From the NCBI GenBank assembly GCA_016839555.1, contig JAEOUA010000010.1, forward strand, positions 224,001-288,000: 64,000 nt of DNA. The letters run 5' to 3'. This document shows positions 7,040 to 44,409 of this stretch, piece by piece. Origin of the DNA: Promethearchaeota archaeon (GTDB lineage: Archaea; Asgardarchaeota; Lokiarchaeia; Sigyniarchaeales; SOKP01). Positions within the stretch are counted from its first letter, which is position 1, and every line of letters begins with the position of its first letter. The notes beneath the pieces were generated by a model. The model saw only the letters and a list, made by a program, of their open reading frames with translations, ran no database searches and was not told the DNA's origin. Both the position numbers and the translations under genes were made by a program.

Positions 7040-7177
7040 TATGATCTAATTAGTTTGAATCTTTTTAAAGAACCAGAGATTGAAGATTTAATAAATTATT
7101 CATCCTTTAAAAAATGAATTTAGATTTTTTTCTAGTAAAATAATAGTTCTAAAGGGGCAAACAAAACTTTTTGAATC

Positions 7178-7774: not shown

Positions 7775-7853
7775 TTTTTACATTTAATAGTTATAAAAAG
7801 AATTATTTAAAGAACGAGATAATTCTAATCAAAAATCCAAAAAACTTTTTTAA

Positions 7854-8183
7854 TCAAAGATGATAGATTTTTTTCATTTTTTTATTGATTTTGCGTTTTA
7901 TTTGCTTACTTATATGACCTAATTCTCCAATAATAAGATTCTTACTAATAGTGGCTATTTTATCTAAAAAGATTGTAGAACTAACTTTCAAATTAGTAAT
8001 CGGAAAATCTTTATAATTTTTATCTAAGATAATATAAGTTTCTTCTGAGGATTTTGGTATTTTAGAAGATATAAATACCACAACCACATCTTTTGGTCTT
8101 TCAAGGATAACTAGAGCTGGTCTTCTCTTAACTGTTTTTAAATCGGTAAACGTGAATGGAATTAAAACAATTTTTCCTTTCAT
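7854..8183 (-). CDS. Type II toxin, PemK/MazF family endoribonuclease
   Basis: KGKIVLIPF.FTD...KRRPALV, ISS, LKVSS...DKIATI, IGELG. Confidence 0.9.
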   Translation of the reverse strand: MKGKIVLIPFTFTDLKTVKRRPALVILERPKDVVVVFISSKIPKSSEETYIILDKNYKDFPITNLKVSSTIFLDKIATISKNLIIGELGHISKQIKRKINKKMKKIYHL

Positions 8184-8422
8184 TTGTATCGCTTAATTAA
8201 ATCTTCATCTGTATAGATATCGGGTTCTTTTTCAAGGAACTCTTTTAAAGAACGTTCAGAAAGCATTTCTAATTCTTGACAAAATATTGGTCCTTCTTGA
8301 TATTTTAAATTTTTCAAATAATTTTCAATAGCTCTGCTTGCGATAGAAGACCAATTTACTTCAGGGTAATCTTCCATTTTTTTTACTAATTCTTCTGGGA
8401 TGGAGATTATTAGTTTACTCAT
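8180..8422 (-). CDS. Cognate antitoxin (N-terminal ribbon-helix-helix)
   Basis: LIISIPEELVKKM...VNWSSIASRAI RHH pattern; acidic C-terminus; 4-nt ATGA overlap with toxin start. Confidence 0.8.
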   Translation of the reverse strand: MSKLIISIPEELVKKMEDYPEVNWSSIASRAIENYLKNLKYQEGPIFCQELEMLSERSLKEFLEKEPDIYTDEDLIKRYK

Positions 8423-8917
8423 TTCTCTATTATTAATATAATACCATAATATAAATTTCTTTCTTTACATTAAGAATTAATTTAAAATTTTTTAAACTAT
8501 ATTCCCATATTAATATCTTGATTATCTTTCTTTAATATTTTCAATAAATCCGATATTCTTTCTCTACTTTAATCTTAAATTCTACATTATTTTCATTAAA
8601 TAATTATCATTTAATTCATAAATAATATGATAAATATCGTATTTGGATCTTCAAAATTAGCTATCCCAGATATAATATTTGAAAATTTTTAAATCTTTAA
8701 AAATTTATAAAATATTCCTAAAAGTAATATTTTGCCTTACTCTAATATGTTTTGAGAGCTATAATAAAATCTGATCAATATTACCCTCTAAACTTTGTGA
8801 TAATATTATGATTCATTTCTACAAAAAAAGAAAAAGAATTACATAAAGAAGAATATTTTTTTTAAAAATATATAGAAGGACTTAATTCAATTATAATTAA
8901 GAAAAAAGGGGTTAATA

Positions 8918-11837: not shown

Positions 11838-12065
11838 ATGGTTGATAAAGAAAAAGTCGAAAAAATTATAGAAAGGATAAGATCGCAATTAAAAATGGAC
11901 GGTGGCGATGTAGAGCTTGTCGAAATAACTGATGAGGGAATTGTGAAGGTTCGCCTTCAAGGGCATTGTGTGGGCTGCATTCATGCTCAGGAGACATTAA
12001 AATATGGGATAGAAAGAGCGATCAAGCAATTCGTGCCTGATATAAAGTCAGTCGTAAGTGTCTAA
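11838..12065 (+). CDS. NifU C-terminal-domain (Nfu-type) Fe-S carrier
   Basis: IR..L..DGGDVELV...VKVRLQGHCVGC...TLKYGIE. Confidence 0.92.
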   Translation: MVDKEKVEKIIERIRSQLKMDGGDVELVEITDEGIVKVRLQGHCVGCIHAQETLKYGIERAIKQFVPDIKSVVSV

Positions 12066-12225
12066 TTTTTTATTTTTTAAATTTTTTTAAAGTCAAAATA
12101 ACTTAATTTTATTCTTGATAATATTTTTCTGATTTAAGAATTAGATTAATAGTAAAATTTTAATTTGATTTTGTTAAATGCTCTCATTTTTTTAAAATAA
12201 TAATAATCAGAATTATTGAAACCAA

Positions 12226-13005
12226 TTAAAGACATAAATTGATAAAATCCGTTATTATTTTTTCTCCAGCGATTTTTGCTTTGTCAATAATTTCATCACT
12301 AATATAGGGAGGATAATGATAATTTCCTATATGATTTTCAGGGTGAAATTGAATTGAATATATCGGTTTATTTTTATGCCGCATATATTGAACAGTTTTA
12401 TAGTTATCAAGAGCAAGAGTGGCAATTATTTTGAAATGTTTGCGCAATTCAAAGTTATAAGGATCTATATAATCTTTATGATTAAGGTTCACATAAATGC
12501 GCTCATGTGGGATTAATTCATCGGGAAATCTTATTCGTAATAAGGAAACATCATTATTTACTACACGATAATTCATTCTTTTGATCTTTGAATTAAAAGC
12601 ATAGGCGGCTAATTGGTGTCCAAAACAAATTGCTAAAATAGGTTTATTGTATTTTCTTTTAATTAGTTCCAATTCTTTTCTAAATAACTCTTTCATATTT
12701 TCGTTCTTATAAAAATTGGAAACATTAAGGTTGGACCCAGTTAAAATTAATCCTTTACTTTTTTTGAGGGTGTAATAATTAATTTCAGAAAAATGGATTG
12801 TGTTTACACGGACCTCCGGAAAATTTATTCTTATAATATTCTCTAATCTAATGATTCTCTCTGGTTTAGCTTTGGTAGGATAATTATTTATAATGTAGAT
12901 TATCTTATGTTTTTTAAATGCTAATCTTATTTTTATTTTTAATTTAATATAGATTCTCTTGATTTTATTTTTAATTTTCTTTAGGAATTGCGCCATTCTT
13001 ATCAA
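12226..13005 (-). CDS. Class I glutamine amidotransferase-like protein
   Basis: LILTGS, PILAICFGHQ (nucleophile Cys), IQFHPE (His-Glu). Confidence 0.88.
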   Translation of the reverse strand: MIRMAQFLKKIKNKIKRIYIKLKIKIRLAFKKHKIIYIINNYPTKAKPERIIRLENIIRINFPEVRVNTIHFSEINYYTLKKSKGLILTGSNLNVSNFYKNENMKELFRKELELIKRKYNKPILAICFGHQLAAYAFNSKIKRMNYRVVNNDVSLLRIRFPDELIPHERIYVNLNHKDYIDPYNFELRKHFKIIATLALDNYKTVQYMRHKNKPIYSIQFHPENHIGNYHYPPYISDEIIDKAKIAGEKIITDFINLCL

Positions 13006-13143
13006 ACTTTTAGCATTTAATTTGAGTTTAATTGACTATTATTGGTTTTTTAGAAATAATTTGTCTTTAATCTAGTACTTTGAATGCCTAATGTTTATAA
13101 TTTTTAAGTATTATAAGTTATAAATAGATGAACAATAAAAGTT

Positions 13144-14604
13144 TTAAAAAGGAAATCCTCCTAAAAGTCTATCAATAAGACTTTCATGTCTAGATCTTAC
13201 ATTTTGGATGCGATCTCCTGGTTCCAAGGGAATTTGTAAACCTTGAACATTGAGCGTATTAATTATTTTTATTGATTTAAAAGATTTTACTAATTCATCT
13301 TCTTCTTCATAATCGAGATCATATTTCACTGATAATTTTCCTTGAATTTGCCTGCCTCCATTGACTTTATATTTGTCTCCTTGATCATCAGAAACAATTC
13401 TGGAATTTTCTAAGATCACAGTAGCATATAAATTTCCTTGTTGCCTAATTTTTTCAATTTTTCGTGTTTGAAATTTAATTCCCAATTCATCTTGGATCTG
13501 CGGTCTTTGAAATTTAAGGGTCGGCAAATTTTTAATTTTTACTCCTAAATTAGCCTCATATTTAGAAATTTTTTGAATCCATTCATAAAGACTCTCTTTA
13601 AAACTAATAACATTTCCCCCATTTCTTTTAAAGCTAGCTTCGTTCCCATATGTTATTGCTCTTTCTATATTTTCTTTATGATAGGGATCTTCTGTGATTT
13701 TTCCTGATTGTGCCAAAGATATCGCATGTAATCCAGAACAACAACAAAGGTATGCAATATCTAATAAATCTTCTATATAGTGCTGAACATCAATTATTCT
13801 AACTTCCACACGATTTCTTGAAGGAGAATCATCCTTATCTCCTTGGATGTTCGTAAAAGGACCTCTAGGAGTAATATCCATTAAGCGATCCCCACTCGAA
13901 TTAGTGATAACCTTTTTCGAAAATTCATCCTCCCCAGAACCAATTTTTAGCTGATATCTCATAAGTCCATAATATCTCATAGGAATTAACGCTGGTTTTT
14001 CTTCAGGAATTTCTATTTGCGCAAACCCATTCGGTTTTAAAACCGTGCTATTTGCACATCTATTACTTGCAATATTTGTTTTTCTTCCTTGAAAAATCGG
14101 GGAATTCGCAGATAAAGCAATAATTTCCGGTAGCATATTCCATAAGTAATTATTTACTGCTTTTAATTCCCATGATTTCATTAAACTTTCTTTTTTTTGA
14201 ACAGACACATTAATATGTGTTCCCACGATTGGGTTGGGATCTGATTGGATTGGGTGGAGACTTTGCGTGAAGATTTTAACCTCTAACTTTTTCCCAGCAT
14301 CAATTAATAATCTCCTGCCGGCTTTTACCGCCTCTTCCAATTGATTTGGTCTTAAAGGAAGCGAAACATATTCTATTTGTGCGGGACTCGGTTCTGCATC
14401 TAGGCTCTGGATTTTTATACGAAGCGCATCAAGAAGATCATTATTCTGTTCAAGAATTTCTGCCGCTTTCATCATTAAATTATCTGCTGCCTCAATTAAA
14501 GTACCATCTTTGTTTAGAATTAGGAACTCTTCTTCTATTCCGCAAAGAACGCGATAATCATCCGTTATATCGTCAATTTCCTTTTCTTTTACATGAAACC
14601 ACAT
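13144..14604 (-). CDS. Glutamate-cysteine ligase family 2 (GCS2/YbdK-like) carboxylate-amine ligase
   Basis: GIEEEF, QIEY, GTHINVS, LPEIIALSANSP, RVEVRIID; extra C-terminal beta-rich region. Confidence 0.85.
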   Translation of the reverse strand: MWFHVKEKEIDDITDDYRVLCGIEEEFLILNKDGTLIEAADNLMMKAAEILEQNNDLLDALRIKIQSLDAEPSPAQIEYVSLPLRPNQLEEAVKAGRRLLIDAGKKLEVKIFTQSLHPIQSDPNPIVGTHINVSVQKKESLMKSWELKAVNNYLWNMLPEIIALSANSPIFQGRKTNIASNRCANSTVLKPNGFAQIEIPEEKPALIPMRYYGLMRYQLKIGSGEDEFSKKVITNSSGDRLMDITPRGPFTNIQGDKDDSPSRNRVEVRIIDVQHYIEDLLDIAYLCCCSGLHAISLAQSGKITEDPYHKENIERAITYGNEASFKRNGGNVISFKESLYEWIQKISKYEANLGVKIKNLPTLKFQRPQIQDELGIKFQTRKIEKIRQQGNLYATVILENSRIVSDDQGDKYKVNGGRQIQGKLSVKYDLDYEEEDELVKSFKSIKIINTLNVQGLQIPLEPGDRIQNVRSRHESLIDRLLGGFPF

Positions 14605-16265: not shown

Positions 16266-17636
16266 TTAATTTTTTTTAATTTTTGAGTAATAATCATAGA
16301 GACATTTGAACCCGCGTACAGCTCTTTCGATTTCGTTTTCAAATACAGGTATTTCTAATTCAGAAGCAGTTTCTATAACCCTTTTTGCTCCTTCTCTTTC
16401 TGCTTGTATCAATATTGCGATTATAGGTTTATTAGGATACATCTCTTTAATATTTTTAAATATACTAAAATCAAATTCGATTTCTATAAAAAATTCTAAA
16501 GCTAATATGAGTCCATTTACAGATTCATCATTAAGAAGTGTTTTAGCAGAAATATTATAAATTCCGCATATTTTTGTACCAATAAATTTATCAGGCGGCC
16601 AATAATCAACCGGATTTCCTGAAATACAAGTTGATCCTCCCACTTTATCTAAAATAATATTTCTATGCTTATTAGCTATTTTTGCCAGCGACAAATTTTG
16701 TTTACGCATTTCTTTTGCTATGATATGAATCGCTCCGCTACTTGGACCAATTAGACCGAGATTTTTACCTTCTGGAGGAGGACACCATAAAAAGAGTTTT
16801 GAGAAATCAAATAATTCGATATAATTTTCAACCTTAATGCCCCCCACTTCGATTAATCTCGTTTCATTTTTAATTTCTTTTCCAACATAAAAGAATAAAA
16901 CCGGTTTGACTGGGGCACACCTTTTTACCGCATTAATTAAATCTTCAGATATTTCTCGTAAAAAGAGAAGGATGACTTTAGTTTTTTTATCATTGATAAA
17001 ATAATGTAACACATCAGATTCCCTAATATTAAATCCATGCCCCAAATGAACTACTTTTGAGATAGGAACATTCTGATTAGGAGACCACCATCCTAATCCC
17101 CCAGCTAATCCACCAGATTGTGCAATATAACTTGCTCCCGATTTTACGTTCCGATTCTGTTTCATAATATAATGTCGAACGGGTATGATGGAGGTGGTAA
17201 AATTATTACTAAAATTAATGCATCCAATCATAGATGGTCCCATATATTGTACATTATATTTTTCAGAAATCTGGTTTAAATGTTCTATGATTTCAATACT
17301 ATTTTCTCGCGAAGCTAATTTATATTCATAATCTACCTTCAATTCTGACTCTATAACAATAAATTTTATTCCAAACTCTGCCAGTTGTTGAAAAATAACT
17401 TCAACATTTTTTCCAAGAACAATTACTGCTAATTCAGGAATAATTGGTAATTCTTCTAGAGAATGATAAGACTTAATCCCTAAAATTTCATCTGCATTGG
17501 GATTTACAATGAAAATTTCTCCGCGGTAAAAAATTTCTATTAAATTTTTAAGTACAGTATAGCTAAAAGTTAATTCTTCGCGAGATACGCCAACGATTAC
17601 AATGGAGCTAGGATTAAAAAAGGGTTTAAGATCCAT
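16266..17636 (-). CDS. Acyl-CoA synthetase (NDP-forming) alpha-subunit-like CoA-binding protein, degenerate
   Basis: FFNPSSIVIVGVS, VNP, AQSGG, NPVD; the phospho-His SHTG loop is absent. Confidence 0.8.
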   Translation of the reverse strand: MDLKPFFNPSSIVIVGVSREELTFSYTVLKNLIEIFYRGEIFIVNPNADEILGIKSYHSLEELPIIPELAVIVLGKNVEVIFQQLAEFGIKFIVIESELKVDYEYKLASRENSIEIIEHLNQISEKYNVQYMGPSMIGCINFSNNFTTSIIPVRHYIMKQNRNVKSGASYIAQSGGLAGGLGWWSPNQNVPISKVVHLGHGFNIRESDVLHYFINDKKTKVILLFLREISEDLINAVKRCAPVKPVLFFYVGKEIKNETRLIEVGGIKVENYIELFDFSKLFLWCPPPEGKNLGLIGPSSGAIHIIAKEMRKQNLSLAKIANKHRNIILDKVGGSTCISGNPVDYWPPDKFIGTKICGIYNISAKTLLNDESVNGLILALEFFIEIEFDFSIFKNIKEMYPNKPIIAILIQAEREGAKRVIETASELEIPVFENEIERAVRGFKCLYDYYSKIKKN

Positions 17637-17876
17637 AACGTTTTCTCAAAAGAATTTTTCTAAATAACTTTTTAATTTAATTGACTATAGGTAGTAATAT
17701 AATCAAAATGGTATAAATATTATTACACTAAAAAAGATTAAAGGGTTTTAAATCCTAAGAATTTAATCAGATCAAGAGATTACTTAGTATCAGTAATGTT
17801 ATAAGGGGGATTAAAAAATAAAAGATTAAGTTAAAATAATTTCTTTTTTTGCTAAAATCGCTAAAGGGTGAAAAAT

Positions 17877-18515
17877 TTATTTTGTTAATTGGGCGATCTC
17901 AACGCTATATAAAGGAATTGGTCTTTTCTTTTCTGCATTATATAATGGTAATCCTACTCGCTTCAAATATTCAGGTTTTTTATACTTCAAGAGCACTATT
18001 TGACAAGAAGAAGGTATTTTTTTAGATGCCACATTTAATCTTTTCTTTGCCAAATCTAACTGCTTCATCTGAATACCTAAATCACAAATAACTTGTCCCG
18101 CATTAACCCGCGCACAAACTGTTGTGGCTCTACCAAAAGAATTTCTCATCCCAGACTGCACTCTATCTGCTCCAGCAAATGCTAGCATGCGATTTTCTCT
18201 AATTTTATGATGACATTGTGGTCTAATCCTTAGTCTAAAATTTTTTCGACCTACTTTTTTTATAAATGCGCTATTGATTGCAATTCTTAATGCTTCTAAA
18301 GCACTTGAAGAGATTTGGACTTTGTCCTCTACTTTCAGGCCAACTACCACATCCCACTCATCCCAGGAGATCTGTTTATTTCCTCCCCAAAATCTATTAA
18401 TTTTACTCTGAGCTCCTCCACGAGCATATTCTCTTCTATGATTTGCGGAACGCTTATGTTGATAGGGTCTACTGTCCCATTTTGAATAACAGTGCCAAGG
18501 TCGCTTAGTAGCCAT
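17877..18515 (-). CDS. rpl10e: 50S ribosomal protein uL16 (L10e)
   Basis: RPWHCY, ALEALRI, RENRMLAFAGADRVQSGMRNSFG; AGGTGA SD upstream. Confidence 0.96.
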   Translation of the reverse strand: MATKRPWHCYSKWDSRPYQHKRSANHRREYARGGAQSKINRFWGGNKQISWDEWDVVVGLKVEDKVQISSSALEALRIAINSAFIKKVGRKNFRLRIRPQCHHKIRENRMLAFAGADRVQSGMRNSFGRATTVCARVNAGQVICDLGIQMKQLDLAKKRLNVASKKIPSSCQIVLLKYKKPEYLKRVGLPLYNAEKKRPIPLYSVEIAQLTK

Positions 18516-18953
18516 ATTTTTTCACCTTTTCTATTATTTTTGAGAAAAATTCCTAAAATTTAAGAATGATTCTGTAAATTATATTATATTTCAGCTAATT
18601 TTTAATTTATAAAGTGGTGAATATTATAAAAATTTTATCTTAGAGATTTATATAGGATTTTTCTATTTATTTTTTAATACTTTTATTTTAATTCGAAAGT
18701 TTTCTTCTTATTTTTAAATCTAAGAATTAATTTAGAATCTTTTCAAATTTATTTGATTATTTAACAACTTACCACGCATTTACGTATTACTTGAAAATAG
18801 TATTTTTTTAATGATATCAAGTTTCTTTGTGAATTTTTCTTAATTCAAGATGGATTTTTTTAAGGAAAATTTTATAAAATACTAAACGAATTACTTTTAA
18901 TCAAATTAAAATATATTATATTTAATCTAATTAAGTATAAATAAAAGTATAAA

Positions 18954-21524
18954 ATGGCTACTGAAATCCAACCACTGGAAAATATTCTTCCTCCACTTCT
19001 AAAAGAAGGAATCGTGGTCTTTTGTGGCGCCGGTATCTCAATCCCGCCCCCAAGTTGTTCGCCTTCATGGTGGACACTTACCGAGGAGATTTTGAAAGCT
19101 TTTTTTGATAGAGTACCTGAAGACTATAATCTCCCAAAAGATATGATTATCAAAGATCCAGAAAGAACACCGGAGGAAGTATTTGAAGCATTCTCAAATA
19201 TATTAGATGAAAGAATGTATAAGGCTTTTGAAGTGCTAAATGTTGCTGAACCTAATGCTAACCATTATGCCCTTGCTCGTTTAGCTAAGAAAGGAATATT
19301 AAAGGCATGCTTTACAACTAATTTCGATATATACTTAGAAAAAGCATTAAAGGAGGAAGGGGTAGATTTTAAGCTTTTAGTTGAAAATATTGAATATGAA
19401 AAATATTTTGAAACTCATATTAGAAATATTGAAACTAATCATAAATTTATTTTATGTAAGGTTCATGGGACAATAGAAAGACCAAATACCATTGTAAGTG
19501 TTGCATCAGCCTATAAAAGTGCAAAGGGATTTTCTGCTCCTAAAGGAAATGTATTTAAAAAGTTAATAGAAACTTATCCTTGTGTGTTTTTAGGATATTC
19601 AGGATGGGATTTTAATCATTTAAATTATAGGAGGTTTTGGAAGCGAGTTGGACCTAGCGTTAAGAAAATAATTTGGAATAATCGCCCTGGTAAAAGGGAA
19701 AATATAGATTTTAGTGATATTTTTCAATCATGTTGGGGAATATTTGAATTTACACAAGCAGAGCTCCCAAATGGGCTTATAAAAGCCATAGAAAAGATTC
19801 CTGAACTAAAAATTGATATAGAAGATTTAACTATGGATTTGATTAAAGATGATGCATCCAATTATGCAAAAGCTCAGGCAGAAAGAATAAGATTTTTTAA
19901 TAATTGGGTTGGAGATTTTCCAGAATCACATATGATTGGACTAGTAATTACTGAAAGTCAAAAATTTTCCACAACTTTTAGAGAATTCATGAAACATACT
20001 AAAGAGTATACTCAAGACACTGAAGCGATTTCATATAATATAAGTAATAAAATTCAAGAAATAACTGAAAAACATAATTTAGGAGAAATTTCTCTTGAAG
20101 AATATCAACACCAAATTTTTACCATATCGCTTGAAAATGCTATAAAGTTGATCAGAAAAGAATATATACCAAGAATTAGAGAAATCATAAATAATAATGA
20201 ATTTCCAGGTATCACAGATAATTCAAGTATTGTTTTAATGTTATTAAACGCATTAATTGCAACCTCAAGATATTTTGATATTGATAAAGCTATATTTAAA
20301 GCGGTAGAATATATAAATAATGTACAAGAATTAAACAAGCTTCAGACCAATGAATCTAGAGCAGAACAAACAATTTTAGGATTTAAATTACAACTTGAAC
20401 GCCCAAATAGAGATGATTGGAAAAGATATCTTGATCAAATGTATTTAGAGAAGCAAGAATTTATTTCTGGAGAGATTGATTTTAATCAATTCAGTTCTAA
20501 CTGTGCAAAGATAAATCAAAAAGCAGTAAATGAATTGGTAGGAATGACTGTTGATATTTATGAATTATTAGACAAACAAGTTGAAGCTACAATTAGGAGT
20601 AATTCAACAGATGAATTTGAGGATCAAGCAGGAGCGTTATCCATCACGATTATGCAAATTGCAGCATATTTATGCTCAAAATTTTATAATAATCAAATTT
20701 ATTTGGATTTACTTGAAGCACTTAGTCAAAATAATCTTCCTGAACATCAAAGAGATCCTAATAAAGTAATTAAAAAAGAGATGCTGGATGGAATTGATAA
20801 AATAATTCGTGATCCATTCATTCCGGTATTAAAAATTGCAGAACAAGAAAGTAATCTGGTTTCAATATTAATGGAAATGGCAATTCTTTCAATTTGGATT
20901 CAAACTGTTCAGTATCTGGATCCTATTGGGATGAAAGAATATCAAAGAATGTGGGATGCAGGAGAATATCCAAAACGCTTCTCCCCTAAGATGATATATA
21001 ATTATCTAAAAGAAAAAATTAAACCTTGGCTTGATAATGCGTTAGAGAATCTACCCGCAAGATATGCTCAGAAATTGTGTGGAAATCTCGCTATTATGGG
21101 AGAGATGGGTGATGATCTTGATTTATGTAAGCAAGCAACTTTAAGAAGCTTGGAATTAAGTGAGAATATGGTCACAGAAGCTACTCCTGAAAATATTCCA
21201 GGAAACCTAGCTGCTTTTTACGAGCGTTTAGGAGATTCAGAAAATGCGCTAAAATATTATATGATTTGTTTAAATGGAATAAAATTAAGATATCCGCCCG
21301 TATTGGCAGATGCAATTGTTTATAGAACTGCAGTCCTTTTGAATGAAAAGGGTGAAAAAACAAAGGCTTTAGAAATTTTAGGTACCTTTCACCCTTCATT
21401 TAGAGGAAATGCAAGTTCTGTAGTTCTAGTATCACGCAAAAAGGGAGAATTGCTTGCCGAAGAATTAGCAAGAGATTTAGGTTATAAAGATGCACATATT
21501 GCTGTGAATAATGTATTAGGATAA
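18954..21524 (+). CDS. SIR2-like (SIR2_2) domain protein with long helical/TPR-like C-terminus
   Basis: VFCGAGIS, PNANH, TTNFD, KVHG, FLGYSGWD; C-terminal GNLAAFYERLGDSENALKYY TPR-like repeats. Confidence 0.85.
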   Translation: MATEIQPLENILPPLLKEGIVVFCGAGISIPPPSCSPSWWTLTEEILKAFFDRVPEDYNLPKDMIIKDPERTPEEVFEAFSNILDERMYKAFEVLNVAEPNANHYALARLAKKGILKACFTTNFDIYLEKALKEEGVDFKLLVENIEYEKYFETHIRNIETNHKFILCKVHGTIERPNTIVSVASAYKSAKGFSAPKGNVFKKLIETYPCVFLGYSGWDFNHLNYRRFWKRVGPSVKKIIWNNRPGKRENIDFSDIFQSCWGIFEFTQAELPNGLIKAIEKIPELKIDIEDLTMDLIKDDASNYAKAQAERIRFFNNWVGDFPESHMIGLVITESQKFSTTFREFMKHTKEYTQDTEAISYNISNKIQEITEKHNLGEISLEEYQHQIFTISLENAIKLIRKEYIPRIREIINNNEFPGITDNSSIVLMLLNALIATSRYFDIDKAIFKAVEYINNVQELNKLQTNESRAEQTILGFKLQLERPNRDDWKRYLDQMYLEKQEFISGEIDFNQFSSNCAKINQKAVNELVGMTVDIYELLDKQVEATIRSNSTDEFEDQAGALSITIMQIAAYLCSKFYNNQIYLDLLEALSQNNLPEHQRDPNKVIKKEMLDGIDKIIRDPFIPVLKIAEQESNLVSILMEMAILSIWIQTVQYLDPIGMKEYQRMWDAGEYPKRFSPKMIYNYLKEKIKPWLDNALENLPARYAQKLCGNLAIMGEMGDDLDLCKQATLRSLELSENMVTEATPENIPGNLAAFYERLGDSENALKYYMICLNGIKLRYPPVLADAIVYRTAVLLNEKGEKTKALEILGTFHPSFRGNASSVVLVSRKKGELLAEELARDLGYKDAHIAVNNVLG

Positions 21525-21853
21525 ACCCTTCCATATTAAACCTCTTATATTTTTTAGTATCAATTAATTATGCAAACATAAACTATAGATCGATTTTTTT
21601 TATATTTTTTGTATTTAAAAGTATATCTATTAATGACATTTCTTTTCCTATTGAAAAATTTTTAAATACCCAAAAATGATTTAGATGAATTAAAATATGA
21701 TATATCTTCATTAAAATCATTGATAATTCTATTTTTTGATAAAACGAAACCTTTATATATAAAGCTGATTAATATTTTACTAATGAATTCTGATGATCGA
21801 TAATGATCACTTTATCTATTTAAAACGTATGAAAAAGTAAGACGAATATAGAT

Positions 21854-24364
21854 ATGAAAAAAATAAAAAATGAAACAGAGAAACCAAATAAATCGAAAAA
21901 TTCCTTGAAATCAAATAGAAAAAGTAAAAAGAGTTTAAGACAAAATAATCTCCCAAAATCAGTTAAGAAACCGAAAAAAATAAACCAAGTTGCTGCTATA
22001 TCGCTTCTAATACTCGGAATCGCCCTAATACCTGGTGCTATCTTTTTAAATTCTTTTATTCAAGAAGAAATCGATAAAGGAATTGAAGAACAAATTTTAG
22101 TTCCTACTTCTCCTGGTACCAATTTCTTAGCATTTATCACAAATGATTATCTTGGAGCTCCAGAAGAATTTAAAACCTTTTATCTATGGAATTTAACCAA
22201 TCCCGATGAATTTCTCTCTGGTGATGAAAAACCCATATATGAACAAATCGGACCATTTAAATTCAGAGATCTGAAGTATAAATACGATATTGCCTATAAT
22301 CCGTTGCTCACTGAAGTTACTTATAAAGAATACGATAAATATGTACAAGTTGCAGGTGATAATATTTCTGAAGTCTATATAACAAACATTAATCCTGGAT
22401 TTTTGGGTGCCATTGAGTACGCCGGCGGAACTGAGCAAAACCTCATCGAAATGAACTTACCTTTAGTGCTTTCTAAAGTAAAGGGAATGTTTTGTGAAGA
22501 ATTGAATCAGACATTAGGAGAAGTTCTCACAGAAGAAGGAATGTTCAGTATGTTAAATGAGACACTTATGGGAATAATAAATGATGCAAGAGTCGACAGT
22601 TCTTTTATTGATGCATTTTTAGATTTACTGGAAACCTTTTATGGAGAAGGTATAATTGAAACATGGATTGAAAATATAATAACATACATTTTCGATTATC
22701 TTCTACCTCCAGAACATTTAATTAATTTTATGGCTAATGCAATGCCCACAGCTGAAGAAGTTTTTTATGAAGAATGGGCAAATGACTATTTTCCTGAAGT
22801 AGATGCTAATCTTACTACGCTTTATGAAGAAATCGAAGGAGTTAATAGTACTGTGTTATTAGATATATTGGAATTCATTTTTGAGACATTTCCTGCTCTT
22901 AAAGATTTAGGAGAATCCATAATGGGGAGTATAATTCAACAATTAGGTGATGATATGGTAAAAAGTGAGGGGAGCAGTGACGGAACGGGTATTGATTTAG
23001 ATGGGCGAGATCCATATAATTATCCGGGTTCTTATAGAGATTTAAATATCGCGAATCATACTGATGGAGGGTCTAGTTTGACCTACGAGCAATGTACTGC
23101 ACTTTGGAATGAGAGTGATCCTAATTCGCTTCTTGGAATGGATTATGAAATCAATAAAGTTTGGTTTGATGCTCTTAATGGTGATAACGATTCACAATAT
23201 TTCTTAAGGGACCATTTTGGAATAACAGAAACTCAACTTAACTCTATTTTGAATTGGATCGAAACAGGTCTATCCACTTGGCTACCAAATTTAATAGAAT
23301 ACTCCTTAAATAAGGAGTATAATAGTGGAGTGATAACGAATAGAACAGTAGAAGAATGGTTATTTACAGCAGAAGACGCAGCTATCAAAGATGCTATGTC
23401 ACAGAATGGGAAAGATGAGTCACTTGCTCGTGTTAATCTGTTTGATAGCTGTCAAAATGAAACTGAGGCAGAAGAAGCAGATATAAAAAGTATTACTATA
23501 ATGACAGGAGAAAATAATAAATATCTTGCCCGACAAGTAGTTAAATACGATGGTAAATCAACTATAAATATCTGGGAAAGTACAGAAAAAATAAGAGGCT
23601 CCTTAGGAATGTATAATATTCCTGGTATGACTGATCTTATACCTCCTAAGATCTTTATTTCAGATTTAATGCGCGTTATTGACATGGTATACATAGGTCC
23701 AACCTCAATATTTGGGGTTAACTTAAATAGATTCACGTTTGCTCCGAAAACATTCTCACCTAATGAAAATTACTATATGAATACTCAAGGATTAATCAAT
23801 GTGCAGGCGGTGGAGAAATTTCAAGGAGTTCCTGTGCTTGTAAGCAAACCTCATTTTCTTGATAGTGATCCGAGTGTTATAAATGCCATAGAAGGCATAG
23901 AACCTAATAGAATATCACATGATACCTTTATAGATGTGGAACCCATATCTGGAGTAACTATGAATGCGCGAGAACGGATTCAGGTGAATTTCAATGTGTC
24001 CTCCGACGAATATTTTACATCTGATATAAATACCACAGTAATGCCCATTGCCTGGTATGAGCAAAGCGGAATAGTTCCAAAACATTTAGCGGATAGATTT
24101 ACTCAGGAAGTGTATCCCGCACAAACAGCACAAATCGCGATAATTTCCGGTGGACTGGTATTAGGTGTGGTATTTTCCATAGCAGGTGGGTCTGGAACCT
24201 TAAATAACGAATTTAAAAAGTCTATAATAAGGAAAAGGCTTGGCCCTAAGGGTAAAAAAGCAATGAAATCAAAATTAGGTTATAAAACTGAGGAGAGTAA
24301 ATTAAAAAAGAAAAAACTAATCAATTCCTCCGAATCATTTGAGAAAAAACCCCATAAGAACTAA
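21854..24364 (+). CDS. CD36/scavenger receptor class B (SR-BI/LIMP-2)-like membrane protein
   Basis: FYLWNLTNPDE...KP..EQIGPFKFR, RTVEEWLF, PVLVSKPHFL, GIEPN..SH.TFIDVEPISGVT...RERIQVN, PIAWYE; TM helix near each terminus. Confidence 0.85.
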   Translation: MKKIKNETEKPNKSKNSLKSNRKSKKSLRQNNLPKSVKKPKKINQVAAISLLILGIALIPGAIFLNSFIQEEIDKGIEEQILVPTSPGTNFLAFITNDYLGAPEEFKTFYLWNLTNPDEFLSGDEKPIYEQIGPFKFRDLKYKYDIAYNPLLTEVTYKEYDKYVQVAGDNISEVYITNINPGFLGAIEYAGGTEQNLIEMNLPLVLSKVKGMFCEELNQTLGEVLTEEGMFSMLNETLMGIINDARVDSSFIDAFLDLLETFYGEGIIETWIENIITYIFDYLLPPEHLINFMANAMPTAEEVFYEEWANDYFPEVDANLTTLYEEIEGVNSTVLLDILEFIFETFPALKDLGESIMGSIIQQLGDDMVKSEGSSDGTGIDLDGRDPYNYPGSYRDLNIANHTDGGSSLTYEQCTALWNESDPNSLLGMDYEINKVWFDALNGDNDSQYFLRDHFGITETQLNSILNWIETGLSTWLPNLIEYSLNKEYNSGVITNRTVEEWLFTAEDAAIKDAMSQNGKDESLARVNLFDSCQNETEAEEADIKSITIMTGENNKYLARQVVKYDGKSTINIWESTEKIRGSLGMYNIPGMTDLIPPKIFISDLMRVIDMVYIGPTSIFGVNLNRFTFAPKTFSPNENYYMNTQGLINVQAVEKFQGVPVLVSKPHFLDSDPSVINAIEGIEPNRISHDTFIDVEPISGVTMNARERIQVNFNVSSDEYFTSDINTTVMPIAWYEQSGIVPKHLADRFTQEVYPAQTAQIAIISGGLVLGVVFSIAGGSGTLNNEFKKSIIRKRLGPKGKKAMKSKLGYKTEESKLKKKKLINSSESFEKKPHKN

Positions 24365-24521
24365 AACGTCTTAAAAACTTATAAAAATTCATTTATTCCT
24401 ATTTTTTTATTATATTTTTGTTAAGAGAAAATATTATTTTAAAATAAAACGTATACAATTAATTTTTATGAGAAACTAAAAAATAAACTTACGAATACTA
24501 TATTATAAAATTAAATCGAGA

Positions 24522-25226
24522 TTAATCAATAATAATAGAAAGATCAAAATAAGAGTCTTTTTTATCTCCACCAATATGGTAATTCTCGATTTTGCACTCA
24601 ATCTTTCGGTTTGTTTCTTTTTCTAATATTCCTTCAGTGAGACCGCATATAAAATGTAAGTGATAAATGTAGTTGTCATTTTCTTCCAAAAAAACGGAAT
24701 TTCGGAAGCGATAAGTAGCCTTCTTACCTTTAGGATCTATCTTTAAAATCGAAATATCCACATCTGGTTGGAAGATGTCGTAAGTTGGATAAAATTCTTT
24801 AAATATTTCCAGATGGATCTTAGTGAGTTGAGAGATTGGATGACTTTTTATATATTTTAATTGCTTGTAAATTTTTGGACTGAATGTGAATTTGATATCC
24901 TGAACGTTTTCTTTTATTAATTCTTTAAAAAATTCTCCTTTTTCAGGAAAATTTTTTTTTAATCCTTTTAATAAGATTTTGTAATAAGATAAAACAAGGG
25001 AATTAGGGAGATAATTTTCTTCTGACGAGAAATAAAGCGAATATGCTCCCACTTTCTTTTTATAGATTTTATTTTTTAATTTTAAGATACTAATATATTT
25101 TGATACCGTATTTCTTGAGTAACCTTTAATATCAGAAATGTCTGTGATAGTTACTCCACCAGGATTGTTTTTAATACATTGTAGTATTTCATATTCATAC
25201 TTTATACTGCTATCTTGCTCCGAAAT
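24522..25226 (-). CDS. HTH plus V4R-like domain regulator (extends upstream of the tracked GTG at 25052)
   Basis: Frame stays open upstream and encodes YEILQCIKNNPGGVTITDISDIKGYSRNTVSKYISIL (HTH). C-terminal HFICGLTEGILE is V4R-like. Proposed ATT start at 25226 behind a GTGGTG SD. Confidence 0.7.
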   Translation of the reverse strand: MSEQDSSIKYEYEILQCIKNNPGGVTITDISDIKGYSRNTVSKYISILKLKNKIYKKKVGAYSLYFSSEENYLPNSLVLSYYKILLKGLKKNFPEKGEFFKELIKENVQDIKFTFSPKIYKQLKYIKSHPISQLTKIHLEIFKEFYPTYDIFQPDVDISILKIDPKGKKATYRFRNSVFLEENDNYIYHLHFICGLTEGILEKETNRKIECKIENYHIGGDKKDSYFDLSIIID

Positions 25227-25402
25227 TCTTAAACACCACGAGAAAATTCTTTCAAATAAGAGTAAAGATTTATCTCTTATATGTTTTTTTACATTAAATT
25301 TGAAATTAATTAGATCAAATAATAAGATTCAATATTAATGATTTTAATGATAAAATAATAAAAAAAATTAATGATTTCTTTTGCTTTTTTTTTAAAAGAA
25401 AT

Positions 25403-34615: not shown

Positions 34616-36298
34616 ATGAGCGAAAATATTAAATTTATCTATAAGGAGGAGTACTGGTTTATTAGTGCTTTTATTAATAGTATAAAAGTGGATATATCAG
34701 AAATTTCACAAAAGCTTGAAAATGCTATTAAAATGCGAATTTCTCAAATAACAAAAAAGGATGCTTATCGCCCAGAATTTGCCGATGAACTGCTTAATAT
34801 GGCGAAAAATATTTCACTTAATTGTCAATGGGTTGAATGCATTGATAATTTTCCCTATTATAACGAAAATACAAACAAATTTTACAATTCTTTAGGATAT
34901 TTTTATTTTGAAGTGGAGTATTATAAAAATAATCCTGAAAAGAAGAAACTCATTAAATCTAATTTAATTCAACAGATTCCTGGAATAATTTTATCTGAAT
35001 TGAAGAGAGAGAGTATCTTCTCACAGGAGGAAGTCTATTTTGATTTAGAAAGCCAAATTTTTATTTTTGCTACGTCTAATAATACAAACCCTCTTAAAAT
35101 CGAATGGACTAAAAATAAGATAGAGGAACATGATAAAGAACTTTCTTATTGGACGGTGTTATATTCAGGACAATGGGAAGATTATTCACCGAAGTTATAT
35201 AGAGATCGCGTTCAAGATAACTTATCTAATCGTCTTTCGGAATTGCATTTTATTAATAGAAACTCGGGATTTGTGTATATGGCAGAAGATAATTATGAAC
35301 GCTTTTTTGATTCGTATATGAAAGAAAATGTGCTACAGTCCACAGCCAAATTCAGAGCAATTATTTTTTCATTAAGAGAAATAAACAACTCCTTAGATTA
35401 TTTATTCTTGAATACCCATTCTGAAGCTTTACAAGATATTGGAATTTTAGAGGAAAAAATAAAAAATTTAAGATTTTTAAGAGGCGTTCTACAAAATACC
35501 TTAAGTTTAATCTATAATGAACTAGATTATAATAGAAGACAACATTACACTTCTGTACTAAAGCACCTAATTACAAAATTCGATTTGGATAATATAAAAG
35601 AGAGAGTAAACAATAAATTTAATTTAATTTACGATACTATGCAAGAGATTTATCAAAGACGTGCTGAACAAGATCAAGAAAAAACAGAGAAAGCATTAAA
35701 TATATTGAATTTTCTCTTAGGTGCAGGAATTATAGCTGATTTAGCGGGACTATTAATGACTACATTTGGATTAAGTGAAGGAGATTTTCCAGCAATATTT
35801 TTAAATGGTTTAATAGCGATTTTCATATCTTCTGTACTTGTATTTGCATTTATATATTACGCGTTAGTTAAATATAAGATTAAAAAAAAGAATATAAGAA
35901 GAGCTGTTGATGGTGTAATCCTTGATGGAAAGGGAAATATTCTATTAATTAAACGGAAATATCCTCCATTTAAGGATTTTTATGCCCTTCCAGGAGGATT
36001 TATAGAAAAAGGAGAGTCTCCAAAACAAGCAATAATGCGGGAAATAAAAGAAGAGACTAATTTGGAAGTAGAAATTGTTGAAAAAATTGGTGTTTATGAT
36101 AAACCTGGTAGAGATCCACGTGGTGAAATTCATTCCACAGCTTTTCTCTGTAAAATTATTGGTGATATCTCTAAATTAAAAGCAAGTATGGATTCAAAGG
36201 ACGCAAGTTTCACCCCCATAATGGAATTAAATCATATAAAATTTGCCTTTGATCATAAACAAATACTAAGAGATGCAGAACTTATCAAACAAGATTAG
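34616..36298 (+). CDS. Membrane protein with CorA/DUF155-like helical region, 2 TM helices and C-terminal NUDIX hydrolase
   Basis: Nudix box GGFIEKGESPKQAIMREIKEETNL, RDPRG, AFDH (ADP-ribose pyrophosphatase-like); long stalk helix into two TMs before it. Confidence 0.8.
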   Translation: MSENIKFIYKEEYWFISAFINSIKVDISEISQKLENAIKMRISQITKKDAYRPEFADELLNMAKNISLNCQWVECIDNFPYYNENTNKFYNSLGYFYFEVEYYKNNPEKKKLIKSNLIQQIPGIILSELKRESIFSQEEVYFDLESQIFIFATSNNTNPLKIEWTKNKIEEHDKELSYWTVLYSGQWEDYSPKLYRDRVQDNLSNRLSELHFINRNSGFVYMAEDNYERFFDSYMKENVLQSTAKFRAIIFSLREINNSLDYLFLNTHSEALQDIGILEEKIKNLRFLRGVLQNTLSLIYNELDYNRRQHYTSVLKHLITKFDLDNIKERVNNKFNLIYDTMQEIYQRRAEQDQEKTEKALNILNFLLGAGIIADLAGLLMTTFGLSEGDFPAIFLNGLIAIFISSVLVFAFIYYALVKYKIKKKNIRRAVDGVILDGKGNILLIKRKYPPFKDFYALPGGFIEKGESPKQAIMREIKEETNLEVEIVEKIGVYDKPGRDPRGEIHSTAFLCKIIGDISKLKASMDSKDASFTPIMELNHIKFAFDHKQILRDAELIKQD

Positions 36299-36478
36299 AA
36301 TTCGTGAACAAGAAGTAATAATAAAATATGACAAAGATTTTATTTAATTATGAGGGAACGCCTAGATTTTTTATAAACTAGATTCCGTTTTTTTTTCTTT
36401 ACCTTCACTTTTATCTGTGTCTTCTATATCGCGTTTTATTTTTTCTTTTTCCTCTTTTTCATTTCTTTCTTGTTTCTC

Positions 36479-37174
36479 TTATGTGTTTTTTTCTTCTTTT
36501 TTCTCTTCTTTCTCGGGTGGTTTAGGTGGGGGTTTAGGTTTTCGGGAAATGATTACCTTTGCATATCTAAGGATATCATCTTTAAATTTCCACCCTTCTT
36601 GAAGTATGTCAATAATAGTATTATTGGGAAGATCATCTCTTTCTAGAGAACTTAGTGCTTCATGTTTATCATAATCAAAATTATCTCCTTCCTTAGTTTC
36701 TAATGGTTGAGCGCCATAAGACTTTAATATATTCATAAATTGCTTATAGAATCCTGTTAATGGATTATTATCATCCAAATCTTTATTAGCACTTCTAAAA
36801 GAATCATATAAAGGTAAAAAATTTCTTAACACGTTAGCTGTATATTGGGTCATTAGTGATTTGCGAGCTTTATCCCATCGCTTCTGCGAGTTTTCGAATT
36901 CTGCCTGAAGGCGCATATATTTATCCTGCCATTCCTCATTTTTGTCTTTTAATTCCTGATTTTCTTTCTCTAAGTTAGATAAGTTTTCTTTGATTTTGAT
37001 AATTTTGTTTATCAACTCCTCTTTAGATAATTCTTTCAGTTCTAATCTGTATTTCTCCTCTTCATCAAGTTCTTTTTCTTTTTCAATTTCGATCTCATTT
37101 TCTTGCCTTTCTTTTTCCTCTGTTTGCTCGCCTATTTCAACCGAATTTTTACTTGCTTCTTCTTTATTATTCAT
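36479..37174 (-). CDS. grpE: Nucleotide exchange factor GrpE
   Basis: RLQAEFEN, FDYDKHEAL, QEGW..KD.ILR.AKV. Confidence 0.93.
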   Translation of the reverse strand: MNNKEEASKNSVEIGEQTEEKERQENEIEIEKEKELDEEEKYRLELKELSKEELINKIIKIKENLSNLEKENQELKDKNEEWQDKYMRLQAEFENSQKRWDKARKSLMTQYTANVLRNFLPLYDSFRSANKDLDDNNPLTGFYKQFMNILKSYGAQPLETKEGDNFDYDKHEALSSLERDDLPNNTIIDILQEGWKFKDDILRYAKVIISRKPKPPPKPPEKEEKKEEKNT

Positions 37175-37235
37175 TCCTCAATCTTATGATAATAAATCTT
37201 TTAAGTAAATTATAGAAAAATTTCTTTAAAGTTTT

Positions 37236-37319
37236 TTGATTTAGAGAGCATTTTAAATATGATCGTAATGCGTGTTATTTTTTAAATATCTTTTAATATA
37301 TCTTGATTTAGAGATCATT
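37236..37319. promoter_or_regulatory. Two 17-bp direct repeats in the divergent grpE-dnaK promoter region (candidate operator)
   Basis: TTGATTTAGAGAGCATT (37236-37252) and TTGATTTAGAGATCATT (37303-37319), 16/17 identical. Confidence 0.55.
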
Positions 37320-37437
37320 ATAAGCAAAAAATTTTAAAATTTCGTTTCTTTTAGTTTATTAAGCAAATTAATTAAATCATTATTTTATTAATCATAATTT
37401 GAATTAAGCTATTATTTTTAAAAAGTGAAAATTAACT

Positions 37438-39435
37438 ATGAGTGAAGGAGAAAAGAAAAAGAAGAAGCGAACAAGAAAGGAAAGAATAATTGGTATCGAT
37501 CTGGGAACCAGTAATAGTGCCTGCGCAGTTTTAAATGCTGTCGGTAAACCAGAAATTGTCCCCGCGGCAGAGGGAAGGACTCTGGGTGGGAAAGCTTTTC
37601 CATCTTATGTGGCATTTGATGAGGAAGGAAGAAAAATAGTGGGTGAGCCAGCTCGTAGACAAGCATTGTCAAATCCGGATGGTACAATAACAGGGATTAA
37701 ACGTAAAATGGGAACAAGCTATAAAGCTGAAATAAAAGTAGGTAGTGAAATAAAGGAATTTACACCCGAAGAGATCAGTGCAATGATTCTTAAAAAGATT
37801 AAAAACGATGCTTCAGATTATTTAGGAGAAGAAGTTCAAAAGGCAGTGATAACGGTTCCTGCATATTTTAATGATGCCCAACGTACATCTACAAAAAATG
37901 CGGGAGAAATCGCAGGCCTAGAAGTTGTTCGGATGATTAATGAACCTACTGCTGCTTGTTTAGCTTACGGATTAGATAGAGTTTCTGATGAATTATTAAA
38001 AATTTGTGTTTTAGACCTTGGAGGAGGAACATTCGACATAACATTAATGGAATATGGAGAGGGAGTTGTTGAAGTGCTTTCTACTGCAGGTGATACGCAA
38101 TTAGGTGGAAGAGATATGGATGATAAAATCACCGATTGGATCGCTGACCAATTTGAACAAAAAGAAGGTATTAATTTGAGTAATGACAAGAAAGCCATGA
38201 TTAGAGTAAAAGACGCCGCTGAAAAGGCAAAAATAGAACTTTCTACCACATTATCAACCACGATTAATCTGCCGTATATTTCTCAAAGACAGGGAGAACC
38301 TGTTCATTTAGAGATGGAATTAACAAGATCAAAATTGGAACAACTGGTAGAACCTGTCTTAAAGCGCCTAGATCCCATAATGAGAAGATCAATAGATGAT
38401 AGCAAATTATCCATAAATCAAATCGATAAAATCATATTAGTAGGTGGTCCTACACGGATGCCATGCGTTCAAGAGAGATTTCAGAAATTCTTTAATAAAG
38501 AACCAGAACATTCTGTTGATCCTATGGAATGCGTGGCGATTGGAGCTGCAATTCAAGCTGGTGTTATTGCAGGAGAGATTGATGATTTACTCTTATTAGA
38601 TGTGACTCCTCTTTCCTTAGGCGTAGAAACTTTAGGGGGGGTAAATACAAAATTAATTGAACGAAATACAACAATCCCTACTGAAAAGAAAAAAATATTT
38701 TCTACAGCAACAGATAATCAGCCTGCGGTGACAATTAATGTGCTTCAAGGGGAAAGAGCAATGGCAAATGATAATATTTCACTCGGGCAATTCCATTTGA
38801 CTGGAATTCCACCAGCTCCACGAGGAATACCACAAATAGAAGTTAAATTTTCCATCGATGCCGATGGGATTGTTCATGTGACTGCTAAGGATTTGGGAAC
38901 TGGAAAAGAACAAGGAATAACAGTTACCGGCGCGAAAGGACTTTCTGAGGATGAAATCCAGCGCAAAGTAAGAGAAGCAGAAAAATATGAAGAAGAAGAT
39001 AAAAAACTAAAAGAATTAATTGAGGCAAAAAACAATGCTGAATCTATGATTTATCAAACTCGAAAATTAATGGAAGAAAACAAAGACAAAATTCAAGAGG
39101 ATGAAAAACAACAGATTGAAAGCGCCATTAAATCTTTAGAAGAAGATGTAAAAACCGATGATGTTAATCGTATTAAGGCAGGAACAGAAAATCTGCAAAC
39201 GTCAATTCACGGGTTTTCTCAAAGAGTTTATGCTCAACAGGGACAACAGCAAGCCTATCAGCAAGCTGCAGAGCAAGCACAGAGAGCCGCTCAGGGCGCT
39301 GGTGATGTTCCACCAGGAGGGATGGGAGGAGCCACACCGAAAGGATCTGGAGGAGCCTCTTATAAATCTAAGAAGGATAAAGAATCCGAAGAAAAAGAAA
39401 ACGTGGTTGACGTTGAATGGGATGACGAGGAATAA
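37438..39435 (+). CDS. dnaK: Chaperone DnaK (Hsp70)
   Basis: [42 protein letters not shown]; short archaeal/Gram-positive-type N-terminal region. Confidence 0.98.
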
Positions 39436-44350: not shown

Positions 44351-44409
44351 TTCTAATCTAATTAGCTAAAATAATATCTTATTTTTTTTTTAATATTCAA
44401 TTTTTATCT

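Follow-up and report, generated by a model that had tools for sequence, protein, structure and literature searches.

A CD36-family gene in an Asgard archaeal genome

A 64,000-nucleotide stretch of the Asgard archaeal genome GCA_016839555.1 (contig JAEOUA010000010.1, positions 224,001 to 288,000; hereafter the window) encodes a protein, P0001, that is almost certainly a member of the CD36/LIMP-2/SR-B family. An original prediction, made from the sequence alone, had described it as an archaeal homologue of CD36, SR-BI, and LIMP-2 with a greatly expanded apical region and had proposed a role as a surface receptor for lipids or particles. The gene and its parts lie at the following positions of the window:

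21525-21853, forward strand: upstream intergenic DNA, AT-rich (GC 0.20), the presumed promoter or 5' region
21854-24364, forward strand: complete CD36/LIMP-2/SR-B family gene encoding P0001, with an ATG start, 836 amino acids plus stop, and zero internal stops
21854-21988, forward strand: N-terminal tail, residues 1-45, 33% Lys, disordered (predicted local distance difference test score, pLDDT, <50), most likely cytoplasmic by the positive-inside rule
21989-22057, forward strand: transmembrane helix 1, residues ~46-68, from hydropathy (helix 42-81 in the structure model)
22058-22408, forward strand: N-terminal part of the CD36 barrel, residues 69-185 (WNLTNP, EQIGPF, TNIN), from the first Pfam stretch and the LIMP-2 alignment
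22409-23053, forward strand: acidic, helical stretch of the apex insertion that evolves fast, residues 186-400, with a conserved F-x-E-x-W-A-N block at 306-314
23054-23317, forward strand: conserved apex unit, residues 401-488 (GGS..T..QC.ALW ... W..A..G ... QL..IL.WI), pLDDT >90
23318-24124, forward strand: C-terminal part of the CD36 barrel, residues 489-757 (RTVEEWL, SKPHFL, EPISG, RIQVN, PIAW), from Pfam and the LIMP-2 alignment
24125-24208, forward strand: transmembrane helix 2, residues ~758-785, from hydropathy and the structure model
24209-24361, forward strand: C-terminal tail, residues 786-836, 33% Lys, disordered, from composition and the structure model

Membership in the family is evident from both sequence and predicted fold. 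The Pfam profile PF01130 matches P0001 with an E value of 5.1e-69 (233.4 bits; cut-off 26.5) in two stretches on either side of the insertion, with the N-terminal half covering profile positions 51-146 and residues 474-777 covering positions 142-458 of 463. Among PDB sequences, phmmer retrieved LIMP-2 chains (E 5e-29) and CD36 (E 3e-22); in the LIMP-2 alignment, residues 69-164 of P0001 correspond to chain residues 5-94 and residues 477-750 to chain residues 128-402. An AlphaFold2 model built from 32 homologues (mean pLDDT 79.7; predicted template modelling score 0.70), which is disordered only in the two tails, has the asymmetric beta-barrel ectodomain fold of LIMP-2 and CD36. Foldseek matched the model to both proteins at E values of 1e-20 to 9e-23 and target template modelling (TM) scores of 0.80-0.85, with structural partners for 374 of the 392 LIMP-2 residues and a helical domain at the site of the apex. 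The search with the Pfam model and the fold comparison with the LIMP-2 ectodomain had both been suggested in the original prediction, and both bear out the homology that it claimed. The 32 orthologues have 57 invariant columns in common; searches of the ESM Atlas returned eukaryotic CD36 clusters only.

All motif blocks named in the original prediction are present in P0001 and occur in the order given there. In the N-terminal half, these are WNLTNP (residues 112-117), EQIGPF (130-135), and TNIN (177-180); in the C-terminal half, RTVEEWL (497-503), a tryptophan-glycine block, SKPHFL (664-669), EPISG (696-700), RIQVN (708-712), and PIAW (731-734). The tryptophan-glycine block exists but is one residue longer than the W....I.G..G written there and reads W574-x5-I-x-G-xx-G585. 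P0001 is a hairpin membrane protein with one transmembrane helix at each end: hydropathy peaks lie at residues 41-70 and 756-781 and the model helices at 42-81 and 743-796, which agrees with the two terminal membrane segments of the original prediction (here placed at ~46-68 and 758-785). The same is true of the Lys-rich tails, both of which contain 33% Lys and most likely face the cytoplasm, and of the abundance of sequons and paucity of cysteines. The ectodomain, which would be exposed at the cell surface, has an isoelectric point (pI) of 4.1 and 13 N-x-S/T sequons, an approximately twofold enrichment over shuffled sequence (6.5 +/- 2.2), and judging from these counts is probably N-glycosylated; the only three cysteines of the protein are at positions 214, 414, and 533. 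The GC content of the gene (0.34, versus 0.30 for the window) is inside the range of the other coding parts of the window, and introns are absent. Scans of the window for tRNAs and Rfam families gave no matches.

The closest structurally characterized relatives differ from P0001 in several respects. Compared with human LIMP-2/SCARB2, CD36/SCARB3, and SR-BI/SCARB1 (PDB 4F7B, 4Q4B, 4TW0, 5UPH, and 5LGD), P0001 has approximately 300 extra residues at the apex, lacks the cysteines of the vertebrate disulfides, and carries much longer basic tails without palmitoylatable cysteines. LmcA of Mycobacterium smegmatis (MSMEG_0317; PDB 7N3V and 7SHW), an actinobacterial member of the DUF3068/PorA group, is a remote relative that belongs to another Pfam family, has a single helix in place of the apex bundle, and shows no significant sequence similarity to P0001; accordingly, the profile PF11271 (formerly DUF3068) had no match to P0001 above threshold.

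The DNA that carries the gene is archaeal. The genome (3.74 Mb in 12 contigs; 92% complete) contains one CD36 gene, which is located on a contig of 504 kb, and the neighbours in the window are archaeal or ordinary prokaryotic genes (ribosomal protein L10e, a CoA ligase, a radical SAM protein, a B12 mutase, and MeaB). That the gene represents eukaryotic contamination or a chimeric assembly has a negligible probability; nothing favours such an artefact beyond the fact that the family was surveyed solely in eukaryotes in the literature found. Against it stand the length of the contig, the gene order L10e, CoA ligase, CD36, and regulator, which is the same in another CD36-bearing Asgard metagenome-assembled genome (MAG), and approximately 30 orthologues on Asgard contigs. 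Moreover, a contig from a public sequencing run matches positions 17000-22164 with zero mismatches and bridges the L10e gene, a SIR2 gene, and the start of the CD36 gene, a second contig covers positions 23775-25273 and bridges the end of the CD36 gene and the regulator, and parts of the locus occur in a marsh metagenome of another study. Contamination and chimerism are excluded because of the synteny with the second MAG and the contigs bridging both ends of the gene. The public sequencing runs listed as holding the gene include no RNA run; they comprise DNA contigs only.

Other genes of the window are recorded here as separate observations. An 856-amino-acid protein with a SIR2_2 domain (Pfam E 1e-13) is encoded on the forward strand at 18954-21524, between the genes for L10e and CD36. 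At locus L016, which is otherwise syntenic, 1.4 kb separates L10e from CD36 and this gene is missing; it therefore looks inserted and is possibly of the defence type. Genes in the region 34616-53045 code for DnaK, DnaJ, an M28 peptidase, two proteins of the URO-D family, a GH94-like glycoside phosphorylase, and a membrane protein that ends in a C-terminal Nudix domain; the region also contains a sulfatase gene with an MFS_2 transporter gene on either side. None of these genes is linked to that for CD36.

The apex insertion and its relatives in protists

The insertion between TNIN and RTV, predicted to comprise approximately 300 acidic, helical residues, has these properties: it is mostly helical in the AlphaFold2 model, lies where LIMP-2 has its apex helices, and is strongly acidic (residues 186-488, pI 4.05; residues 186-495, 18% Asp and Glu versus 3% Lys and Arg). 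On its own, it had no match to any Pfam family at E values up to 0.1. Apex expansions are also present in eukaryotic members of the family. A survey of eukaryotic SR-B proteins found that all of them lie between motifs M4 and M6, in helices alpha4/alpha5 of the ligand-binding bundle, and considered them to be lineage-specific and of independent origin (PMC10715195). An early example is LmpA (DdLIMP) of Dictyostelium, described in 1999, a protein of 779 amino acids with a pI of 4.4 and 19 sequons, whose insertions follow residue 160 (PMC2148220).

Profile comparisons indicate that part of the insertion of P0001 is homologous to the apex module of such long-form protist proteins. An exhaustive profile search yielded 6,286 matches, and among the matches listed, proteins of 700-870 amino acids score best after those of Asgard archaea; those with names come from amoebozoans (Luapelamoeba, Cavostelium, Endostelium) or are protist transcripts of the MMETSP collection. 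Homologues from Marine Group II archaea were absent from the 150 matches listed. Alignment of the long forms with P0001 covers the barrel and extends into the insertion (residues 186-240, 301-320 with the block at 306-314, and 401-500); the short forms of approximately 500 amino acids have none of it. When insertions alone were compared using hhalign, those of P0001 and its closest archaeal relatives (Loki-type) matched those of long-form eukaryotes over 74 columns (probability 98.7%, E 2e-16). A second type of Asgard CD36 (Heimdall-type), which occurs in other classes and has its closest named relatives in Hodarchaeales and Kariarchaeaceae (submitters' names), matched them over 225 columns (probability 100%, E 1.3e-43).

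The three groups differ in how much of the module they contain. The protist long forms have one apex module of approximately 200 residues. Hodarchaeales and Kariarchaeaceae possess the whole module, partly in tandem, with overlapping copies in insertions of 466-1199 amino acids. P0001 matches only the first ~75 of its ~200 positions, with residues 401-488, and residues 186-400 form a Loki-type-specific helical region ahead of this conserved unit. The iterated hidden Markov model of the unit drifted into the long module and was used only to sort proteins into those with ~75 residues, ~200 residues, or repeated copies. The extremes of length among the Heimdall-type proteins are P0045, P0053, P0048, and P0050 (1330-1650 amino acids), which have several overlapping tandem copies of the module in insertions of up to ~1200 residues, and the kariarchaeal P0081 (615 amino acids), which has only a short insertion of ~150 residues. 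The expanded apex of the original prediction is thus real but not special to Asgard archaea, given that its conserved unit is homologous to the module of amoebozoan and other protist long forms.

The resemblance to the long-form protist proteins (Dictyostelium LmpA, LmpB, and LmpC, other Amoebozoa, and MMETSP transcripts) extends to their length of 700-870 amino acids, the two terminal transmembrane helices, the acidic, sequon-rich ectodomain, and the location of a large helical insertion at the same site of the barrel apex. The likeness to the Dictyostelium proteins was judged from other amoebozoan transcriptome proteins and published descriptions (PMC2148220, PMC10715195). The tails of P0001 are long and Lys-rich, and unlike those of the amoebozoan Lmp type, its C-terminal tail (residues 786-836) has neither a YxxO nor a [DE]xxxL[LI] sorting motif. 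We know of no endolysosomal system in an archaeon to which the protein could be sorted. The Heimdall-type proteins (600-1650 amino acids) carry their insertion at the same site as P0001, with which they share ~32% identity. Long-form CD36 as such is already known; no paper found describes its presence in archaea or the homology of the archaeal apex.

Apex and barrel evolve at very different rates. Between P0001 and its homologue P0003, the C-terminal barrel is 79% identical and free of gaps, whereas residues 186-400 are only 31% identical with 14% gaps; by region, identity ranges from 76-79% in the barrel and from 24-37% in the apex. A fast apex on a slow barrel is, judged from these alignments, the signature of an exposed recognition surface over a constrained core. 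The closest homologue, P0002, shows the opposite, with 90-95% identity to P0001 in the apex and 80-85% in the cores (alignment A1), a mosaic that suggests recombination or the swapping of apex alleles between strains.

Distribution and origin of the archaeal genes

CD36 genes are scattered among Asgard archaea. A word-based search turned up 33 proteins, all with PF01130 and 544-982 amino acids long (all but one at least 756), and every named one stems from an Asgard MAG; a pattern scan of 185,579 species genomes found 18 loci, all in Asgard MAGs or one unclassified archaeal MAG. PF01130 is encoded in 29 of the 400 genomes of the phylum. Within the class of the window, the gene is present in 20 of 161 genomes, which belong to one family and to 4 of 30 genera, and is missing from genomes of the window's own genus that are 93-95% complete. 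Among the other Asgard classes, it occurs in four families and 8 of 18 genomes (one sub-threshold match excluded). The types follow taxonomy, with the Loki-type in a single family (f1) and the Heimdall-type in the other classes, at an identity of ~32% between them. The gene is conserved but accessory.

Several related genomes contain two CD36-family genes, which are arranged in tandem or lie 15-17 kb apart, in one case with two copies of the regulator between them. The genomes and loci concerned are:

L011, 2863-5310 and 5824-8526
G265:C33
G275:C4
SHMU01000004 (L003 and L016)

In another Asgard MAG (locus L035), a divergent CD36-family gene (P0055, 984 amino acids) is followed 3.9 kb downstream by a DDE_Tnp_1 transposase gene (11851-13503, reverse strand), with a 949-amino-acid gene that lacks a Pfam family between the two.

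The phylogeny of the family was inferred from 91 sequences and 439 barrel columns, excluding the insertion (E-INS-i alignment; IQ-TREE, LG+C20 with posterior mean site frequencies; unrooted). Sequences were counted as eukaryotic if they grouped with named protists and were located on transcript-sized, single-gene contigs; a word-based search for named eukaryotic relatives, starting from the long form of Cavostelium, gave 3 matches. All Asgard sequences, 29 of the Loki-type and 8 of the Heimdall-type, fall into one clan outside the eukaryotes, with a support of 99 in the Shimodaira-Hasegawa-like approximate likelihood ratio test (SH-aLRT) for all 37 sequences, 100 for the Loki-type, and 93 for the Heimdall-type; the same clan was recovered under LG+F+G4. 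The nearest eukaryotes are the long forms, and the short forms, including those of Ciona and the short form of Cavostelium, are on the far side of the tree. An initial FastTree phylogeny in which the Asgard sequences were split into two groups (hmmalign; short forms 40-60% filled) was superseded by the E-INS-i alignment and the IQ-TREE analysis. The nesting inside a eukaryotic clade that would have spoken for recent transfer is not observed; because all Asgard sequences fall into one clan outside the eukaryotes, recent transfer is excluded.

Alternative topologies were compared using approximately unbiased (AU) tests (LG+F+G4 with fast constrained searches; the p-values are rough). The grouping of the Loki-type with long-form eukaryotes was rejected (p 0.036), but those of the Heimdall-type with long-form eukaryotes (p 0.19), of Asgard archaea with the amoebozoan-containing clade (p 0.09), and of Asgard archaea with the short forms (p 0.27) were not. 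The unrooted tree is equally compatible with a root on the Loki-type branch, which would unite the Heimdall-type with the eukaryotes, as the species tree predicts, and with a root within the eukaryotes.

Both an archaeal ancestry of the eukaryotic family and an ancient transfer in the opposite direction have to be considered. On the evidence of these sequences, the chances that eukaryotic CD36 proteins descend from archaeal ancestors are about even. That an early eukaryote passed a long-form gene to an Asgard archaeon, from which it then spread among Asgard lineages, is rather unlikely by comparison, although the family is found in almost every eukaryotic supergroup (PMC10715195) versus 29 of the 400 Asgard genomes and is restricted to 4 of 30 genera, all of one family, in the class of the window. 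Midpoint rooting, which places the Asgard clan among the long-form eukaryotes, and the AU tests, which retain the grouping of the Heimdall-type with these long forms and that of Asgard archaea with the amoebozoan long-form clade, point in the same direction. Against such a transfer stand the single, well-supported clan of 37 Asgard sequences and the deep divergence within it (~32% identity between the types), the correspondence of the types with Asgard taxonomy, and the full apex module shared by Hodarchaeales and Kariarchaeaceae (again as named by their submitters), which vertical descent predicts. Any transfer must be old because the GC content of the gene (0.34) is close to that of the window (0.30) and introns are absent.

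The original prediction had also proposed a candidate eukaryotic signature protein. The conserved Asgard family speaks in its favour, but the case is weakened by the patchy distribution and by the alternative topologies that the AU tests did not reject. A more specific scenario, in which a long-form CD36 was present in a Heimdall/Hodarchaeales-like archaeal ancestor of the eukaryotes and vertically inherited, the last eukaryotic common ancestor possessed the long form, the short CD36, LIMP-2, and SR-BI of animals arose by loss of the apex module, and Asgard archaea use the protein for the capture of lipids or their exchange with the environment or syntrophic partners, is conceivable but, taken as a whole, doubtful.

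The conserved neighbour and the possible function

The only neighbour that is conserved across loci is a putative regulator:

24525-25226, reverse strand: 234-amino-acid winged-helix protein whose modelled C-terminal domain resembles the V4R/Bet3 fold, convergent with the CD36 gene and possibly functionally linked to it

Its gene and that for CD36 are next to each other in 14 of 19 loci, arranged either in tandem or convergently, and according to the coordinates the regulator gene lies within a few kilobases on the same contig in most genomes of the class that contain CD36 (20 in all); in the genome of the window, it is single-copy. The N-terminus contains a winged helix-turn-helix (wHTH; Pfam HTH_11, HTH_24, and IclR-type, E 3e-5 to 1e-3). 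The Pfam V4R profile did not match the protein, but Foldseek matched its structure model (pLDDT 82) to Bet3/TRAPPC3 (E 5e-6, target TM 0.52-0.60) and to the V4R domains with which the regulators MopR and PoxR sense phenol (E 2e-4). Elsewhere, the V4R/Bet3 fold binds palmitate or small hydrophobic ligands. Orthologues of the regulator are present also in many genomes without CD36 (72 versus 20 of the 161 genomes), and the notion that the two genes form an obligate pair found no support in their phylogenetic profiles, as the regulator is far more widespread than CD36.

The context of the regulator in genomes without CD36 varies. In a genome of the same genus (L031, 10279-13372, reverse strand), an orthologue (63-65% identical) is encoded beside an NMO/FabK-like flavoenzyme and a 663-amino-acid AMP-binding enzyme resembling acyl-CoA synthetases. 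In a related genome (L034), the synteny around the regulator (a 182-amino-acid gene without an assigned function, the regulator, and a TPR protein) is retained, and the place of CD36 is taken by a 546-amino-acid open reading frame on the opposite strand (6914-8554, reverse strand) that belongs to no Pfam family. A link of the regulator to the metabolism of hydrophobic compounds is suggestive but not obligate.

The start of the regulator gene is unusual. In the region 24525-25241 (reverse strand), the conserved wHTH is located upstream of the first ATG, GTG, or TTG codon (GTG at 25052). Most of the 13 orthologues show the same pattern, and several frames open with I-I-S, I-S-E, or similar residues directly after a stop codon, which suggests that the regulator is initiated at ATT- or ATA-type codons in this lineage.

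P0001 may be an archaeal long-form member of the CD36/LIMP-2/SR-B family that works as an apex-docking lipid conduit, a statement that, as a whole, is as probable as its opposite; for the capture or transfer of lipids as its function, the chances fall slightly short of even. If P0001 works like CD36, SR-BI, and LIMP-2, its apex would dock a lipid-bearing ligand, a particle, or the surface of a partner, and hydrophobic molecules such as fatty acids or other amphipathic lipids would travel through the barrel towards the outward-facing side of the membrane or away from it. The adjacent wHTH regulator would probably control expression; its putative sensor domain resembles a fold that binds hydrophobic small molecules in other proteins. 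The presence of a tunnel, the kind of ligand, the transport direction, and the control by the neighbour are all inferred from such analogies.

Several points weigh against this proposal. In animal CD36 proteins, the apex sets ligand specificity, and because the apex of P0001 is largely unrelated to the three-helix bundle of animals, a ligand cannot be transferred by homology. The vertebrate ectodomain disulfides have no counterpart in P0001, and none of its cysteines is opposite a LIMP-2 cysteine in the HMMER alignment; such disulfides are a trait of the animal members rather than of the Pfam CD36 family as such. The CD36 gene serves no core process, because it is missing from near-complete genomes of the same genus, and its linkage to the regulator may be positional only. 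Moreover, known members of the family also act as adhesion, phagocytic, or sorting receptors without lipid transport.

In a less probable alternative, P0001 would be a surface receptor for recognition or adhesion, with a hypervariable apex as the binding site for another cell as partner, a particle, a virus, or an extracellular protein, and a barrel that is a scaffold without lipid transport. The contrast in identity between apex (31%) and barrel (79%) in the comparison with P0003 and the mosaic of P0002 are typical of an exposed surface for recognition that undergoes diversifying selection or allele exchange, and the duplications of paralogues in other genomes fit a diversifying receptor. Precedents exist in LIMP-2, which binds glucocerebrosidase and an enterovirus, in CD36, which binds PfEMP1 (according to the titles of the structures), and in the Lmp proteins of Dictyostelium, which function in phagocytosis (PMC10715195). 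The barrel, which forms the tunnel in animals, is nevertheless the most conserved part of P0001, whereas a mere scaffold should be less constrained; the fold of the adjacent regulator is used for hydrophobic ligands, and both functions are compatible in known members. Less probable still is an outward role resembling that of LmcA, in which the protein would handle the cell's own lipids, glycolipids, or lipid-linked glycans in the biogenesis of the envelope or surface layer. The precedent of LmcA is weakened by its remote similarity to P0001, which has no PF11271 match, and the absence of the gene from most related genomes, near-complete ones included, argues against a core role in the envelope. 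The lipid conduit remains the preferred, though by no means secure, reading.

P0001 represents an archaeal addition to a known family rather than a new kind of system, and is of interest for evolution and cell biology. In eukaryotes, proteins of the CD36 family have central roles in the uptake of lipids, in phagocytosis, and in the biology of lysosomes. The broad survey of the evolution of the family covers eukaryotes only (PMC10715195), and the literature found contains no paper on archaeal CD36. The family may predate the eukaryotes, and an intact Asgard family would add a receptor of membrane traffic or lipid handling to the candidate eukaryotic signature proteins. Because Hodarchaeales and Kariarchaeaceae share the full module with protists, the view that apex expansions arose independently is challenged for the amoebozoan-type apex. 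These claims are limited by the patchy, accessory distribution of the gene and by the unrooted tree. The archaeal proteins nonetheless offer a handle on how wall-less, syntrophic Asgard cells meet external lipids or partners. If the family was inherited vertically from archaea and mediates the capture or exchange of lipids in Asgard cells, a surface device for lipid traffic would be older than phagocytosis and lysosomes, which would also bear on how the archaeal host handled lipids of the bacterial type.

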